DNA from: a virus | Taxonomy: Duplodnaviria; Heunggongvirae; Uroviricota; Caudoviricetes | DNA: 64,000 nucleotides | Strand: one strand, 5' to 3' | Virus record (IMG/VR): IMGVR_UViG_2778261457_000003 | Location: 1-64,000 of that record | Shown here: piece by piece, positions 15,001 to 21,000 of the stretch | Numbering within the stretch: position 1 is the first letter of the stretch | How the letters are laid out: the number at the start of each line of letters is the position of its first letter | Position numbers: made by a program

Positions 15001-18000
15001 TGATGCTCTGGTAAATGCCCTTGGTGGAGAGGCTAAGCAGTGAAAGAGCTGTGCTATGGATCTGTTTGCAGTGGAATTGAAGCCGCGAGTATTGCCTGGG
15101 AACCGTTGGGTATGCGTCCGGCGTGGTTTGCTGAAATCGAGTCTTTTCCATCTGCCGTTCTTGCGCACCGCTGGCCCCATGTCGCGAACCTTGGCGACAT
15201 GACAAAACTCGCCCAAAAAGTCCAGGCTGGAGAAATTGAAGCCCCTGATGTGCTCGTCGGGGGTACGCCTTGTCAGGCATTCAGTATCGCGGGCTTACGT
15301 GGTGGGCTTGATGATGAACGCGGCGCGCTAACTTTGAAGTATGTGGAGCTTGCAAATGCAATTGACGACAAACGGTCTGAGTCCTTCCTCAAACCGACAG
15401 TTATCGTCTGGGAAAATGTCCCAGGAGTCCTGTCATCAGCAGACAACGCGTTCGGATGTTTCCTTGCCGGATTGGCTGGAGAAGATGCGCCATTCGAACC
15501 TGGTGATCGACCTGAATCACGAAAAAGTAACACGTTCTGGCGGTGGGATGTCAAAACCGGTTGCCATGCTCCAAAGTGGCCGCAGTGTGGTTGTATTTAT
15601 GGACCGCAGCGAAAGGTGGCCTGGAGAATCCTTGATGCCCAATACTTCGGAGTGGCACAACGACGCCGACGCGTGTTTGTTGTCGCAAGTGCTCGAACAG
15701 ACCTCGATCCCGCAACGGTACTTTTTGAGTTCGAAGGCGTGCGCCGGAATATTGCGCCGAGCCGAAAAAAGAAGGAAATCGCTTCCGCCATTACTGCAAA
15801 TGGCGCTGCAATCAGTGGCGAAAGCCTAAATCCATGCCTACACGCTGGCATGTCCCCCGATATGAAATCGACGAAAGCCGTAAACGGTTTCAGGATGGCG
15901 GCATTTGGGGAATATATTGACGATGAAACCGCATCGACAGTAAAGGCAAGAGACTTTAAAGATGCCACTGACCTTGCCGTTTTTAGCAGCACTGGAGCAG
16001 GTTTTTGGTCAGAAGGGCATGGTACATTGCGGGCGCGTGAGCAAGAAAGCCATGAGCATCTTGTTACATTGGCTTTTCCTGAGCGTATGAGTGGTACACA
16101 ACATGCAGCAACTAAGAATACTTCACCATCTCTAATGGCTCAAAATCCAACTGCTGTTTGCTATGAAGTAAGAAACGAAGAAGTAGCTGTCCGCCGTCTT
16201 ACCCCTGTCGAATGTGAGAGACTTCAAGGTTTTCCTGATGGACATACGTTGATCCCTACGGAAAAGCGTAAAAAAGTTAATTCAGATGAACTGGCATATC
16301 TGCGCAATCACTATCCAGATTTAAGCGAAGAAGAGGCCGCGATGCTTGCAGCTGACGGACCGCGTTACAAAGCGATCGGCAATAGTATGGCGATACCAGT
16401 AATGCGCTGGATTGGCGAGCGGATTACCAAGGCTGCATGTCGGCAGAATGAAGGGCGTGAAACAAAAGAGCGAAAAGTTAAACCAGCGGCAGAATTCGAA
16501 CGGTCCATATTCAAATGGGCTGGTGGAAAATTTGGTGTTCTGGAACAAATCTTTCGCTATTTGCCAGAAGGGAAGCGCCTGATCGAACCTTTTGTCGGTG
16601 GCGGAGCTGTCTTCACGAATGCCGGATACCAGGAAAATCTGCTAAATGATGTGAATGCTGACCTGATTAACTTTTACAAGACTCTGCAACGCGAGGCGCA
16701 TTCACTTATCACACTGGCGCGTCGGTTTTTCCAGGACTACAACACACAGGAAGGATACCTGGCAGTACGGAATGCGTTTAACAAACAAGTCTATGATGAT
16801 TTACATCGCGCAGCGGCGTTTTTGTTCCTGAACCGACATTGTTTTAACGGATTGACGCGTTACAACCAGGCCGGTGAGTTCAATGTCGGTTATGGGAAGT
16901 ATAAAACTCCGTATTTCCCATTACAGGAGATGGAAGCCTTCCTCGGTGCGGAAGGGTGTTCTGAGTTTGTATGTGGTGATTTTGCTGCGGTGATTGAAGC
17001 TGCCGGAGAAGGAGATGTCATCTTCTGTGATCCGCCGTATGAACCGCTTCCAAATACAGAGGGATTCACGAACTATTCCGGTCATGACTTTAAGTTTGAA
17101 GAGCAAAAACGCCTAGTGTCTCTGTTGACGGATGCTCATCGCCGAGGTGCAAAGGTTCTCATTACTAACAGTGGCGCGCCAAACATCAGAGAGCTTTATC
17201 ATGACAATGGCTTCAGAGTGGAGCCTCTTTTTGCCAGACGTTCTGTGTCTTGTAAGGGGGACACTCGAGGTGTTGCTCATGACGTTTTAGGTATATTGCT
17301 CTAATAAATTTATTAGTGTAATATCGCCTCAATGAATCGTGATTTATAGAGCGATTTAGCTGTTAGCCGCGACAGGCGCGGCGGTAAGCATGGCTGGGCC
17401 TAGTCCTCCCAGACAAACCACCGAGTTGCCAGGTTGACCATGCGCCTAAGTGGCAACGCCGAAGTGCGTTACGAGCTTCCAGTTTGCCCATCTTCGGGTG
17501 GGCGTTTTTTTCAGGGTTTTCGTCATGGTTAGCGACTTTGCGGCGGTTTAGAAACTGACCATTAAAGTAAATGCAAACGATGATCTGATGATGGTAGCGG
17601 CCTAAGAAGCCAGACGCCACGGGGTATGAGTCGTCCCCCGTCAAAAAATCGACCGCAGAGTGTCCCCGTCTGTGTATTAGGGAACGGGGAGGCACAACAG
17701 GTAAGGGCGCTGGTGTGATTAACCAGATGAACGAGAAGGGGCCATCTGTTGGTCAGCGTCCTTTCCTGTTGCGTCTTCTTTTCAGCGTAACAGCGGTGCT
17801 TAACAGCACTTTGGGTACAGTTCCACGAATTTACGGGTATATCCCGTCATGCTGAAGGCGCTAATCACGCTGGAAGCCAGGGTTGTGCATCCCCTGTTAC
17901 CGAATTGCAGCCAGGGCGCGGTGCGCCGAAAAGCATACGGAGGTGGAAGCCCTCGCCGGAGACGTACCCGGCAAGTGATGGTGTAGCTCAGCGGTTAGAG

Positions 18001-21000
18001 CGGTTGACTGTTAATCAACGGGTCGATGGTTCAAATCCATCCGCCATCGCCAATGCCGGTTTAGCTCAGTTGGTAGAGCGCCTGCCTTGTAAGCAGGATG
18101 TCAGCGGTTCGAGTCCGTTAATCGGCACCAACACAACAGGTAAGGGTATTTTGCGACGTCGGAGATCGCCGTGCTTGGCAGAGGGTTCGAATCCCTACGA
18201 AGTACCCTTACCGTTGTGATGAATGCGCAGGCTGATGCGCGAAAGACATTGCAGCTATTGCGGAAAAGAGCTGTTCGGCGGGGCAATTAAACGCCCGTGA
18301 GAGTCTGAAATAACCGCAAGCCGGAGATCAGCACCGGTCATCACAACACAACAGGTAAGGGCATTCTCCCTTATGGGGCTTGGCTTAAATGCATCGAGTG
18401 CTCTTACCGTTGTGATGAAGTGCAGCTCTTTGAAGCAACCAGAAGATAAGCATCTGGCTTCACAACATAAACCGCAGGAACGACCAATAAACGGTAGTCC
18501 GTATGGAGAACACCCCGTTGAGGAAGAGGCCTGGCCGGAACCGTAACCGGCACTACAACGTTGAGAACACTGGCGTAACGGGGTCATATCCCAATCTACG
18601 AATAAATGTTGCGTTGCAGCGTGACAACCAGTGTTCTCAACATTGTGGTGAATGCACAGGCTGATGTGCCGCAACTACAGTAGTGCGCGCTTTGCGGGGC
18701 TTGCTACAACCCTGTGTCGGAGTTCAGCACCGACCATCACAGTTTGATTCTCTGGCATGAGCATAACGCTGAAATAAGTCCAGTCTGGTGCGGCCCGATC
18801 ACCCGCCGTTAGCTCCACGAAACGGAGCACGTAACAGGTAAGAGCATTCTCCTGTAACGGGTTCATATCCCAATCTACAGGTCCACCAGGAATGCTCTTT
18901 CCGTTGCGGTGAATGCGGCTAAGCGCACGCGGAACAGTTAAAACAATCCTCCTTAATGGTTAAACATTCCGGCGTTAATTGTTAACTGGTTAACGTCACC
19001 GGGAGGCACTCGGCACCGCAATCTAATAAATATGTCACTTTTATTGAGGGATAACCAATGTTCGGTAAATTGTTCGGCAAGAAAGTCGCTTCTGCAAAAG
19101 TAGAGCTGAAAAAAGTTGAGAATCGCGATCTGATGGAGGCCATCATCGGTGGCTGTTTGTTGGTGTCTGCCGCTGATGGTGAAATCGAAAAAGAAGAAAC
19201 AGCGAAACTTGATCAGCTTGTCCGCTCTAATCCGCGTCTTAGTCATTTTGGTAACGAAATTACTGCAACAATTACCCGCTTTACCGAGCAACTGGAAGCT
19301 GGCTTCCGTGTTGGTCGCATGAATATCCTTCGCGAAATTGAAGATATCAAAAACGATCCAAAAGAAGCGGAAGAAGTATTCGTTAACATGCTGACAATTG
19401 CAGAAGCGGACGGTGAAATCGAGCCAGCAGAACACAAAGTACTGGAAGAAGTAGGCCGTCGTTTAGGTCTTCGTGTGGAAGATTATCTGTAATGGCAAGC
19501 AAGGCACGTATCGCAATCGCCATTGGTTTTCTCTTGCTGTCCGTGCTGGTGGATTTCACCAGCACAATCCTGTCAGTTTTATCGGACGGGGCGTTGGTGG
19601 CAGTAGCTGTAACATTGGTATGGCCGATATTAAAAACAGCTTCTAAGGATCAGTGATGGGCTTCTGGGATTTTGCTGACAAGCATCCAATTGTTCTCGTT
19701 GTCATTGCTGGCATAGTTGTAGGCGGTATTGCTGGCGTCATAGAAGCACTCAGGAAACAGTAATCCGGCCCTTTAGCTCAGTGGTTAGAGCTGGCGACTC
19801 ATAATCGCACGGTCACCGGTTCAAGTCCGGTAGGGGCCACCATATTTGGTTGTAACACGGCGTCTGGCACATGCGTCGTTAGCGGTCTGGTGACGTTAAA
19901 AGGGGGGAACCTTGCCCCTAGCTCAGGCAACGAACCAGGTAGCCGGAATGTGCAAGCCACCGTTTGTTGTTTCTCGGGTAAAGGGATTCACCATCCTGGC
20001 GATTCGGTGTGACAGCCGGGAAGAGTCCGGCGCATTAATCCTGATTTTCTGGTGATGACTCATATCGTTAGGAGTGATTTGAGTATGCCGATTATATCTG
20101 ACATTCAGCACGCCTGGGTGGAGTGCTAATGTCTGCATCCCCTCTTGAATCCATGCCAAATTCCCTTAGTGCAGAACAAGCTGTACTTGGTGGCTTAATG
20201 CTTGATAACTGCCGCTGGGATGAAGTTGCAGATCGTATAGTTGCTGATGATTTTTATACCAGTGCTCATCGTGAAATTTTCAGTGAGATGGAGAGGTTAT
20301 TAAGTCATGGCAAACCGATTGATTTGATAACACTTGCTGAAGCACTTGAACAGAACGGTAAATTAGAACGCGCCGGTGGTTTTGCGTACCTTGCGGAGAT
20401 GTCAAAGAACACGCCCAGCGCGGCAAATATTTGTGCTTATGCGGATATCGTTCGTGAACGCGCGGTTGTTCGTGAAATGATTTCCGTCGCAAATGAAATA
20501 GCCGAAGCTGGATATGCGCAGGATGGCAGGGGCAGCAATGAATTGCTGGATATGGCCGAGCGCCGCGTTTTTGAAATAGCTGAAAAACGACAAAAGAGCG
20601 GTAGTGGTCCAAAAGATATCGCCAGCATTCTCGATGCAACGGTATCTCGCATAGAAGAGTTGTTTCAGCGACCACATGATGGTGTAACGGGGCTTGATAC
20701 GGGATTTACCGATCTCAATAAGAAGACGGCAGGGCTTCAGCCGTCCGATCTCATCATTGTCGCCGCCCGCCCATCTATGGGGAAGACCACGTTTGCGATG
20801 AATCTCGTCGAAAATGCCGCAGTTCGTAACGATAAGCCCGTATTGGTTTTTAGCCTTGAGATGCCGAGCCACCAGCTGATGATGCGCTCACTGGCTTCTC
20901 TTGCACGCGTTGATCAGACTCGTATTCGGACAGGGCAACTTAACGACGAGGATTGGGCGCGGGTTTCTGGCGCAATGGGTATTCTGTTGGACAAGCAGAA

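Follow-up and report, generated by a model that had tools for sequence, protein, structure and literature searches.

What does a phage encode in a stretch of 1.7 kb that surrounds two tRNA genes and holds a row of long hairpins? In the textbook phage P1 this stretch is annotated with two hypothetical minus-strand genes. The same stretch occurs in the DNA analyzed here, 64,000 nucleotides of IMG/VR virus record IMGVR_UViG_2778261457_000003 (hereafter the window), whose source is a P1-like phage: positions 17300-19060 share 99.4-99.6% identity over the first 93% of their span with Escherichia phages vB_EcoM-813R1, JL22 and RCS47, and 97% identity over the full span with one P1 isolate. We find that the hairpins are strand-specific, covarying, modular RNA structures on the plus strand. 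They belong to a modular RNA family that is unannotated, and absent from Rfam save for the architectural likeness of its second module type, type-2, to STnc100. The evidence speaks for a structured-RNA array in place of the two annotated genes. As to what the array does, we place roughly even confidence in the explanation that the hairpins form part of a cassette array of RNA modules filling the ban operon leader, where they would be co-transcribed and processed as scaffold RNAs.

Sequence, repeats and folds agree on five hairpins, one upstream of tRNA-Asn and four downstream of tRNA-Thr, just where an earlier note on this DNA had placed them. We call these hairpins type-1, and the variable interior at the tip of each stem its cargo.

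17693-17773 (extended helix 17686-17780), plus strand: unit 0, type-1 hairpin, -48.8 kcal/mol, z -5.8, with the arm repeat
18132-18218, plus strand: unit A, type-1 hairpin, z -5.2; the cargo is a tRNA-like top half, with a 5-bp hairpin and a T-arm, AGGGUUCGAAUCCCU
18347-18414, plus strand: unit B, type-1 hairpin, z -4.6; the 3' arm contains the BoxA-like UGCUCUUA
18551-18650, plus strand: unit B', type-1 hairpin with different arms, -55.6 kcal/mol, z -5.9; the cargo contains a CAU-loop hairpin (GGGGUCAUAUCCC)
18830-18908, plus strand: unit C, type-1 hairpin, z -4.4; the 3' arm contains UGCUCUUU and the cargo a CAU-loop hairpin

Folded one by one, all five give a long hairpin with a minimum free energy (MFE) of -34.5 to -55.6 kcal/mol and z scores of -4.4 to -5.9, and 0 of 200 shuffles were as good. 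The stems had been put at 14-21 bp, which proved too short, as the MFE folds extend them to 19-35 bp. Closing helices in the window units measure 19-25 bp, giving the two or so turns (at least 20 bp) of mostly regular double-stranded RNA expected of an RNase III site, and the same is true of 66 relatives. The arms themselves are repeated: four units share a common arm, as the earlier note had it, in a direct-repeat family, CACAACAGGTAAGGGC, at 17693, 18132, 18347 and 18830, and B' does use arms of its own, an inverted repeat of 23 nt at 18551-18573/18628-18650 that is 91% complementary. Inverted repeats also mark unit A (18139-18151/18200-18212) and unit C (18837-18849/18890-18902), and a direct repeat is common to C and B'. 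A 15-mer of the arm, with up to 3 mismatches allowed, occurs 5 times in the window against 1.05 expected, a count that 0 of 100 shuffles reached.

The five units are members of a much larger family. A scan of viral contigs with CACAACAGGTAAGRG returned at least 120 loci and, among the matches listed, at least 66 distinct type-1 units whose interiors, 30-140 nt long, represent about 45 unrelated sequences, so that the earlier suggestion of a paralogous family with a conserved scaffold and a variable interior holds well beyond the window. The consensus reads CACAAC-A-GGUAAGAGCAUUG (GGUAAGRGCAUUG) ... CAGUGCUCUUUCC-GUUGUG, forming a stem of about 20 bp with the cargo at its tip, and three departures from regular pairing are conserved as well: one A bulges out, 20 of 29 arms have a U.U mismatch, and 21 of 29 have a U.G wobble. 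The 29 arms are distinct, include window units A, B and C, and were aligned in a fixed geometry after selection for pairing at 10 or more of the 13 inner positions, a selection that biases the percentage paired and leaves two-sided changes unbiased. Two-sided change is seen at 13 of the 19 stem pairs, and the covariation score is 0.237, against 0.100 when shuffled and at most 0.086 for slid structures. Distant relatives keep the arrangement of hairpin and type-2 module with wholly different arm sequences. A closing helix of at least 14 bp that ends exactly at the type-2 start is found in 66 of 142 unique contexts, compared with 16 of 426 shuffled sequences and 12 of 300 random positions.

That this structure forms in a single strand of defined polarity is suggested by its base pairs. 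Of 64 hairpins, 61 fold more stably as the plus strand than as the reverse complement, with a mean difference of 6 kcal/mol, and the stems hold 111 G.U pairs against 14 A.C mismatches. This agrees with the earlier argument from G-U pairing for structure at the level of RNA, although G.T counts alone cannot separate a function in single-stranded DNA from one in RNA. Known RNA families offer no ready match: at permissive E-values, Rfam assigned the hairpins of the window region and of 15 related loci to no family, and the matches returned were to tRNA and STnc100, with chance-level microRNA, plastid and transfer-messenger RNA (tmRNA) matches besides.

Units A, B' and C are each followed by a trailing motif (GGUGAAUGC and a hairpin with a GGCUGA loop), which is the 5' end of the second kind of module, type-2. 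The earlier note had described such a motif, and it is real, reading G(A/G)TGAATGC with a GCGCA-GGCTGA-TGCGC hairpin; the GCACA/TGTGC version after B' is genuinely compensatory, with the same pair covarying over 95 sequences. A type-2 module begins with a 5' strand of 7-9 nt and a GAAU linker, continues with GCGCA-GGCUGA-UGCGC, a variable middle of 24-200 nt and GCCGG-AGAUCAGCA-CCGGC, and ends with a complementary 3' strand. Where the middle contains a hairpin, the module is modeled as a four-way, tRNA-like cloverleaf closed by a helix, helix P1, of 7-9 bp. Type-2 elements in the window are as follows.

18213-18347, plus strand: type-2 module 1; helix P1 GUUGUGAUGA/UCAUCACAAC; GCGCA-GGCUGA-UGCGC; cargo; GCCGG-AGAUCAGCA-CCGGU
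18409-18466, plus strand: minimal type-2 variant, GUUGUGAUGAAG ... CCAGAAGAUAAGCAUCUGG-CUUCACAAC, a direct-repeat family
18642-18743, plus strand: type-2 module 2; helix P1 AUUGUGGUG/CAUCACAGU; GCACA-GGCUGA-UGUGC; GUCGG-AGUUCAGCA-CCGAC
18905-19020, plus strand: STnc100-like type-2 module (RF02076, 43.0 bits, E 2.3e-7), immediately upstream of tciA

Module 1 is 96-98% identical to segments of lambdoid and Stx phages, module 2 is identical in one related locus (L001; related loci are given by such numbers where needed), and the minimal variant also occurs in Salmonella phage Sasha and in L117 and L130. To collect further examples, viral contigs were scanned with GAAUGC and the GGCUGA hairpin, and the module counts that follow are among the matches listed. 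The 3' strand of helix P1 was located by the second hairpin alone, independently of pairing, and it pairs at 7 or more of 9 positions in 114 of 124 modules, with 42 different 5' strands. In an alignment of 95 anchored sequences, 95.2% of cells pair and 14 of the 24 pairs show two-sided change; the inner positions of helix P1 each take 4-5 pair types, values that 0 of 500 shuffles reached and that slid controls did not approach. The covariation that the earlier note had asked of homologues is present in both module types. The GGCUGA loop is complementary to the AGAUCAGCA loop over 5-6 nt, a contact without covariation support because both loops are invariant. The sequence N0-1CCA follows helix P1 in 67 of 218 modules, and one module, in L235, contains a complete tRNA-Ser as its middle arm, the only module to hold a tRNA.

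Type-1 units and type-2 modules alternate along the array, and they interlock. The last 6-9 nt of the hairpin 3' arm, which we call X', also serve as the 5' strand of helix P1 in the following type-2 module, and the start of the hairpin 5' arm, X, has the same sequence as the 3' strand of helix P1. The order X...X'...X is kept while the sequence itself changes. As X' is shared, two helices compete for it, except where X is duplicated, as happens before unit B (CACAACACAAC). Since X' can pair with either copy of X, cleavage or refolding could hand it from one helix to the other, and the arrangement may act as a refolding switch.

The cargos are diverse, and a minority of them resemble parts of tRNAs. 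In 4.3 kb of type-1 cargo we count 13 T-loop hairpins (G-UUCRANN-C on 4 bp), all on the sense strand and spread over 12 of the 66 cargos, where the background is 0.055 per kb. Within the window, T-arm-like motifs had been reported in units A and C, and only the first proves to be one: GGGTTCGAATCCC in A forms a true T-loop hairpin, AGGG-UUCGAAU-CCCU, and no other unit has the 5-bp stem closed by G-C and the 7-nt loop UUCRANY of a T-arm. Both GGGTTCATATCCC in C and GGGGTCATATCCC in B' lack the invariant A58, and with loops of UUCAUAU and GUCAUAU in B' and C they look like a CAU anticodon loop instead of a T-loop. The cargo of unit A, consisting of an acceptor-like 7-bp extension, a 5-bp hairpin and the T-arm, recurs in other scaffolds (L030, L083), and Klebsiella phage Magnus carries a degenerate class II tRNA inside a type-1 stem. 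Units B' and C share with mEp460, L055 and L061 a two-tier hairpin, ACGGG-YYCAUAW-CCCAAUC, in which both stems covary (outer stem GCGUG/CACGC, CUGUA/UACAG or CCGGA/UCCGG; inner stem GGC/GCC); the mEp460 copy, GGGCUCAUAACCC, is what we take to be the anticodon arm of the E. coli initiator, tRNA-fMet.

Other stable RNAs are seldom represented in the cargos. One type-2 cargo family matches 16S rRNA positions 237-283 (helix 11 of the small-subunit model; E 1e-5 and 2e-7). Its copies, at L073 4600-4646 and L101 3971-4017 and also in L079 and L096, are nearer to the Pseudomonas or Vibrio type than to E. coli. When 280 kb of islands were compared by BLAST with E. coli rrnB, ssrA and rnpB, this 16S-like family alone was recovered, so we dropped the capture of host stable RNAs as a general rule. 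The notion that tRNA genes are the usual cargo was also rejected, one module alone holding a tRNA; tRNA genes directly abut units in the window, in L021 and in L123. A CUGAUG motif had prompted a look for hammerhead or other ribozymes, which we rejected, as the core was incomplete and Rfam gave no match.

Where the array sits bears on how it might be expressed. We used the P1 record NC_005856 as the reference annotation and mapped promoter and operator by homology (locus offset +15799). In that record the end of dmt carries Pban/Oban, and after it come a "dicF-like region", trnA (Asn), trnT (Thr), plp and upl on the minus strand, tciA, tciB, tciC, trnI and ban.

17279-17324, plus strand: P1ban/P2ban promoters and C1 operator Oban (Op72), by homology to the NC_005856 annotation, at the end of dmt
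17485-17512, plus strand: strong intrinsic terminator from a terminator scan, TGCCCATCTTCGGGTGGGCG followed by TTTTTTT, inside the P1 "dicF-like region"
17513-17692, plus strand: tag-like module with a frame at 17573-17605 (ANDDLMMVAA*); weak matches to Rfam tmRNA_permuted and beta_tmRNA
17977-18052, plus strand: tRNA-Asn (GUU), ARAGORN and Rfam tRNA, with encoded CCA
18055-18130, plus strand: tRNA-Thr (UGU), ARAGORN and Rfam tRNA, with encoded CCA
18255-18674, minus strand: plp-like ORF ("putative lipoprotein"), 139 aa, annotated in P1, overlapping RNA cassettes
18675-18866, minus strand: upl-like ORF, 63 aa, annotated in P1, overlapping RNA cassettes
19058-19492, plus strand: tciA, TerB-family gene, Pfam TerB match

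With Pban/Oban upstream and the tci genes and ban downstream in the P1 annotation, the hairpin region appears to be the untranslated leader, about 1.7 kb long, of the C1-repressed ban operon. A simple promoter scan found no plus-strand promoter between the terminator at 17485-17512 and tciA (19058), and the ban promoters lie upstream in the P1 annotation, both in line with the earlier proposal that the hairpins are co-transcribed with the tRNAs; the array would then be transcribed as one unit. The terminator lies about 180 nt downstream of the ban promoters and probably gates the array; so short a distance implies that a short leader RNA is made and that read-through into the array, tciABC and ban is regulated. 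Other prophages (L057, L083) are laid out alike, with promoter, short RNA, terminator and then cassettes. Despite the name of the P1 region around it, Rfam DicF had no match at the terminator or "dicF-like region" of the window. The only tRNAs called in the examined region, whether by ARAGORN or with Rfam RF00005 at its cutoff of 29 bits, are those at 17977-18052 and 18055-18130, which score 72.3 and 72.9 bits, and one at 19767-19842; none of the five hairpin units was called by either.

The two minus-strand genes do not fare well in this light. The earlier note had seen no credible open reading frame (ORF) over 17500-19050; frames of 139 and 63 aa do exist there. Both are probably spurious annotation artefacts, because neither has a Pfam match, the C-terminal half of Plp differs according to the underlying cassette, and Upl is missing from P7 and D6. 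The pair is not conserved among P1, P7, D6 and SJ46.

The tag-like module lies between terminator and unit 0, which comes after it in all P1-like loci. Its frame, GCA AAC GAT GAT CTG ATG ATG GTA GCG GCC TAA, encodes ANDDLMMVAA, where the E. coli SsrA tag is ANDENYALAA. The frame recurs in many prophages (L009 2272-2304, L024, L025, L030, L035, L057, L060, L083, L095, L146), always with 10 codons, in variants such as ANDDVVLMAA*, ANDEQFLAVA* and ANDDLMLMAA*, and some of the nucleotide changes are synonymous. A conserved block, UUAGAAACUGACCA..AAAU, stands upstream of it. Rfam tmRNA scores for the module are 24-26 bits, under the threshold of 47, ARAGORN called no tmRNA, and no tRNA-like acceptor end was found at the tag modules.

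Scaffold and arrangement extend well beyond this operon. We found the type-1 scaffold in 290 phage-collection records, where it is almost never annotated; these phages, temperate and virulent, infect Salmonella, Klebsiella, Escherichia, Cronobacter, Aeromonas, Erwinia, Hafnia, Yersinia and Edwardsiella. It is also present, and never annotated, in 628 of 5,426 complete E. coli genomes (about 12%), at 1-3 copies (median 1) and in accessory DNA only. These numbers indicate accessory phage-borne DNA and not a host repeat, which the earlier note had named as an outcome that would count against it. The exact type-2 22-mer GTGAATGCGCAGGCTGATGCGC has a wider range, with matches in 115 species genomes from Enterobacterales, many Beta-, other Gamma- and two Alphaproteobacteria and a few metagenome-assembled genomes (MAGs), and the 3' hairpin and covarying helix P1 are present in these genomes too. 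This 22-nt stretch is identical from Yersinia to Janthinobacterium and Pelagibacterium, and such conservation usually means direct contact with a conserved host machine. The family reaches beyond P1 to temperate and virulent phages of Enterobacteria and, through the type-2 partner, to prophages of Beta-, Gamma- and Alphaproteobacteria. The 22-mer loci L240-L354 include MAGs labeled Coriobacteriia, Geobacteraceae, Phycisphaerales and Acidobacteriota, and these non-proteobacterial matches could be binning contamination.

Cassette content changes between close relatives. P1, P7, D6, SJ46 and Ro157c2 have different sets of units, and NC_005856 lacks exactly one type-2 module and unit B, so that unit A joins the next module with the junction inside the shared 3' arm. 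Equivalent slots hold true tRNAs, tRNA-Ser in P7 and D6 and tRNA-Tyr in Ro157c2. The slot in P7 (L005 2481-2567) and D6 (L004 2307-2393) contains an 87-nt tRNA-Ser(UGA)-like gene with an unusual D-arm, whose amino acid tRNAscan-SE did not call in the D6 record. The genomic sites are also varied. Some are leaders of lytic operons: besides the one after Pban, the early-left (pL) leader just downstream of a cI-like repressor in mEp460 and Stx2a phages (15 of 115 genomes) and the interval between pR'/qut and the holin gene in HK633. Others are tRNA islands, in SCNJ1-C and Magnus, and modules often come directly after an intrinsic terminator. A search for a conserved partner protein beside the 22-mer in the 115 genomes found that only ordinary prophage genes recur, with a cI/S24 repressor upstream at 15 loci and endolysin or recombination genes downstream. 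In Magnus, the annotation fills some 3 kb ahead of tRNA-Met/Arg (L009 2100-5041) with successive hypothetical ORFs of 30-60 aa; this stretch comprises a tag-like module, the type-1 unit with a degenerate tRNA-Leu-like cargo, type-2 modules and an STnc100 match of 52.9 bits.

How, then, might the array work? In the explanation that we hold at about even odds, lifting of C1 repression would allow the array to be transcribed as one RNA, through the promoter-proximal terminator and with the tRNA genes included. Host RNases would then divide it, with RNase III cutting the long stems, RNase E cutting the single-stranded GAAU linkers, and RNase P and 3' trimming acting at tRNA-like ends. X', the outer 6-9 nt of the 3' arm, would pass from the X of its own hairpin to the X of the next type-2 module, by cleavage or by co-transcriptional refolding. 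The products would be stable, nuclease-resistant small RNAs in which the conserved stems and cloverleaves serve as scaffolds for expression and processing and the cargos as functional payloads. The overall interpretation in the earlier note, of paralogous small RNAs or processing elements, stands in part: structure at the level of the plus single strand, covariation and the paralogous family are borne out, and annotation places the hairpins in one transcription unit with the tRNAs.

Several observations sit poorly with this explanation. Its processing steps are read from the anatomy of the array, and the arms are conserved in sequence far beyond what pairing needs, which points to a sequence-specific partner where a generic processing-stalk model names none. 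In one Salmonella phage a unit is antisense to both flanking genes, so that co-transcription with neighbors is not universal. The two full type-2 modules of the window have no CCA tail, 54 of 66 type-1 cargos have no recognizable tRNA feature, and a tRNA gene is present in only 51 of 236 fetched loci, which told against tRNAs as the usual cargo as well.

A broader and more tentative possibility, which we regard as doubtful though worth stating, is that these modules form a general plug-and-play phage system, in which tRNA-shaped and long-stem scaffolds with rrn-like BoxA/BoxC signals carry payloads swapped by recombination. Lytic operons gated by a terminator would yield them in large amounts, and host translation and RNA surveillance would be what they manipulate or decoy. 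The payloads may include tRNA arms, a mimic of the initiator-tRNA anticodon arm, a mimic of 16S helix 11 and a mimic of the tmRNA tag. If this were true, the modules would be a new class of phage RNA element, and the plp and upl annotations of P1 would be artefacts.

The main rival to the processing model, or else its complement, starts from the BoxA-like core in the hairpin 3' arm. This core would recruit NusB/NusE and the Nus complex to make polymerase resistant to Rho across the untranslated array, and tethering of X' to polymerase would make it easier for X' to find the downstream X, much as BoxA and BoxC assist formation of the 16S processing stem. The two models are compatible, and we think antitermination unlikely as the primary reading. 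Mapping BoxA positions 1-8 onto UGCUCUUU, presumably the E. coli sequence, the type-1 consensus 3' arm, CAG-UGCUCUUU-CC, holds all 8 nt read by NusB/NusE in rrn BoxA. Unit C has the core (UGCUCUUU of rrn or CGCUCUUA of lambda) at 8/8 in 18893-18900, unit B has UGCUCUUA, with the lambda-type A8, at 18399-18406, and units 0, A and B' do not have it. The U.U mismatch seen in 20 of 29 arms keeps a U at position 8 at the cost of one base pair, and recognition by NusB/NusE does cover BoxA positions 1-8, ending at U8 (PMC3177189). Of 223 unique contexts, 61 (27%) have a match of at least 7/8 within the 30 nt that precede the type-2 module, compared with about 2% of control windows and of the reverse complement, mostly at the fixed position -17 and in several unrelated arm classes; the many arm variants may share one ancestor, however, in which case these counts are not independent, and a good BoxA is absent from the other 73% of contexts. 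Long untranslated RNAs such as rRNA and CRISPR arrays require BoxA to escape Rho (PMC7665894), and the ban leader would be an untranslated RNA of about 1.7 kb. Yet NusB/NusE need single-stranded RNA, and 7 of the 8 core nucleotides are Watson-Crick paired in a covarying stem that is predicted to be very stable. The 8-mer is also common, with 20 copies on both strands of the 64-kb window against 8.8 expected.

The remaining alternatives differ in whether they grant the RNA a function at all. One would make the payloads tRNA-mimic decoys, T-arm minihelices and copies of the initiator anticodon arm (GGG-CUCAUAA-CCC) held on stable scaffolds and produced in bulk during lytic growth beside the phage tRNAs, as bait for host proteins that bind or cleave tRNA, such as anticodon nucleases and VapC-type toxins cutting initiator tRNA. 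The sense-strand T-loop hairpins in 12 of 66 type-1 cargos would fit, as would the cargo of unit A, which has acceptor-like stem, hairpin and T-arm and no anticodon arm, the covarying CAU-loop hairpin common to B', C, mEp460, L055 and L061, the presumed initiator arm in mEp460 and the 16S-like cargo family. Against it, most cargos are unlike known RNAs, the BLAST comparison of the islands with E. coli rRNA, tmRNA and RNase P RNA gave the 16S-like piece only, and the units have no linked defence or toxin gene. We judge decoys improbable. Quite improbable, in our estimate, is that the units are evolutionary debris, decayed tRNA genes and recombination scars whose arms are shared recombination flanks and whose RNA has no function. 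Debris would explain cassette content that varies between close relatives with junctions within shared arms, tRNA fragments in the cargos and real tRNAs in equivalent slots (Ser in P7/D6, Tyr in Ro157c2), but neutral debris would not keep compensatory changes, the ratio of 111 G.U to 14 A.C or stability on the plus strand only, would not hold an exact 22-mer across bacterial classes, and would not sustain X/X'/X with entirely different sequences. We give hardly any credence to a last group of readings, which takes the units as DNA-level elements (MITE- or REP-like, attC-like, or single-strand initiation sites) or plp and upl as real genes. Inverted repeats with a bulged base, and the motif CACAAC/GTTGTG, loosely recall attC R-boxes, but the strand asymmetry speaks against a duplex-DNA palindrome, the copies, 1-3 per genome, are confined to prophages and absent from the E. 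coli core genome, the outer stem varies freely (the 42-46 strands of helix P1) without an attC consensus, and no integrase or transposase is among the linked neighbors. As for genes, NC_005856 and several relatives do carry plp and upl annotations, and the lack of a Pfam match, the dependence of the Plp C-terminal half on the cassette and the loss of Upl in P7 and D6 all stand against them.

Comparison with known systems places the array among phage and bacterial stable RNAs without assigning it to any of them. STnc100 (RF02076)/PasD comes closest to the type-2 modules: a stem of 8 bp, UGGUG/CACCA, closes the structure, GAAU links it to the first hairpin, and a variable middle leads to the last hairpin, CCGGGAGGCACCCGG, beside the 3' strand. 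In the model alignment the type-2 modules show this architecture and the five hairpins do not, and nothing in the STnc100 model corresponds to the long stem-cargo hairpin. By score, the module at 18905-19020 (43.0 bits) stays below the threshold of 47 bits that the true member in Magnus passes at 52.9, and the two full type-2 modules (18213-18347, 18642-18743) and the five hairpins have no STnc100 match at E <= 10. The GGCUGA and AGAUCAGCA loops are peculiar to the new group. STnc100/PasD small RNAs are prophage-borne and linked to TerB genes in Stx-type prophages (PMC13192938), and the literature treats them as Hfq-dependent base-pairing RNAs with their own terminator. The rRNA operon leader offers another likeness, being long and untranslated, with a small hairpin, UGCUCUUU and a G/U-rich strand that pairs far downstream to enclose a structured RNA; the order BoxB-BoxA-BoxC was compared on a sequence that we take to be the rrnB leader. 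The array departs from it in that BoxA lies inside a stable hairpin, helix P1 has 7-9 bp against about 26 bp, and only about a quarter of contexts have the BoxA-like core.

Phage T4 species 1 and 2 (rnaC/rnaD) are small stable non-tRNA RNAs that are co-transcribed with tRNAs, have tRNA-like ends and are processed by the tRNA machinery; compared by description, they differ from the array in having no repeated conserved scaffolds with exchangeable cargo. Bacterial Y RNAs (YrlA, Yrn1) resemble the units in their long end-to-end stem topped by a tRNA-like domain with a T-arm, and YrlA-like RNAs occur beside Ro60 orthologues in phage genomes (PMC4201824). YrlA is defined by the order T, acceptor-like, D, a GNCGAA motif and an rsr neighbor, and the hairpin array has none of these. 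We rejected this identity, as RF02553 reached at best 22.7 bits against 69, only over the two true tRNAs, the arms contain no GNCGAA motif and the P1 annotation used here has no rsr. The HK022 put RNA, like the modules, is a cis RNA in the early (pL) operon leaders of lambdoid phages lacking N. It is about 70 nt long and has two stem-loops side by side, a triplex in stem I and neither closing stem nor variable insert (PMC9378689), an architecture unlike both module types, and we set it apart by this description, not by sequence. REP/BIME, ERIC and MITE elements are also imperfect palindromes in noncoding DNA, and were rejected on the copy number in E. coli (628 of 5,426 genomes, median 1, maximum 3, none in the core genome) together with the strand-specific G.U excess and the covariation. 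Integron attC sites (R''/R' RYYYAAC/GTTRRRY with IntI) were rejected given an outer stem that varies freely (GAUUGGA, AUGCAGA, UGUGAUC) and no integrase among recurrent neighbors. In the openly searchable literature (subscription papers being outside that scope) we found no earlier description of the motif and nothing relevant on the tRNAs of the P1 ban operon.

The definition of this family gives annotators a target for a covariance model and removes spurious ORFs. It also opens questions about how long untranslated phage RNAs are protected from Rho, how they are cut, and what purpose payloads that look like tRNA, rRNA and tmRNA might serve. Between unit 0 and tRNA-Asn, positions 17774-17976 show further long-range pairing, of GUAACAG near 17785 with CUGUUAC near 17893, and a hairpin, GCCGGAGACGUACCCGGC, immediately 5' of tRNA-Asn resembles the type-2 3' hairpin; this interval may be a further degenerate module.

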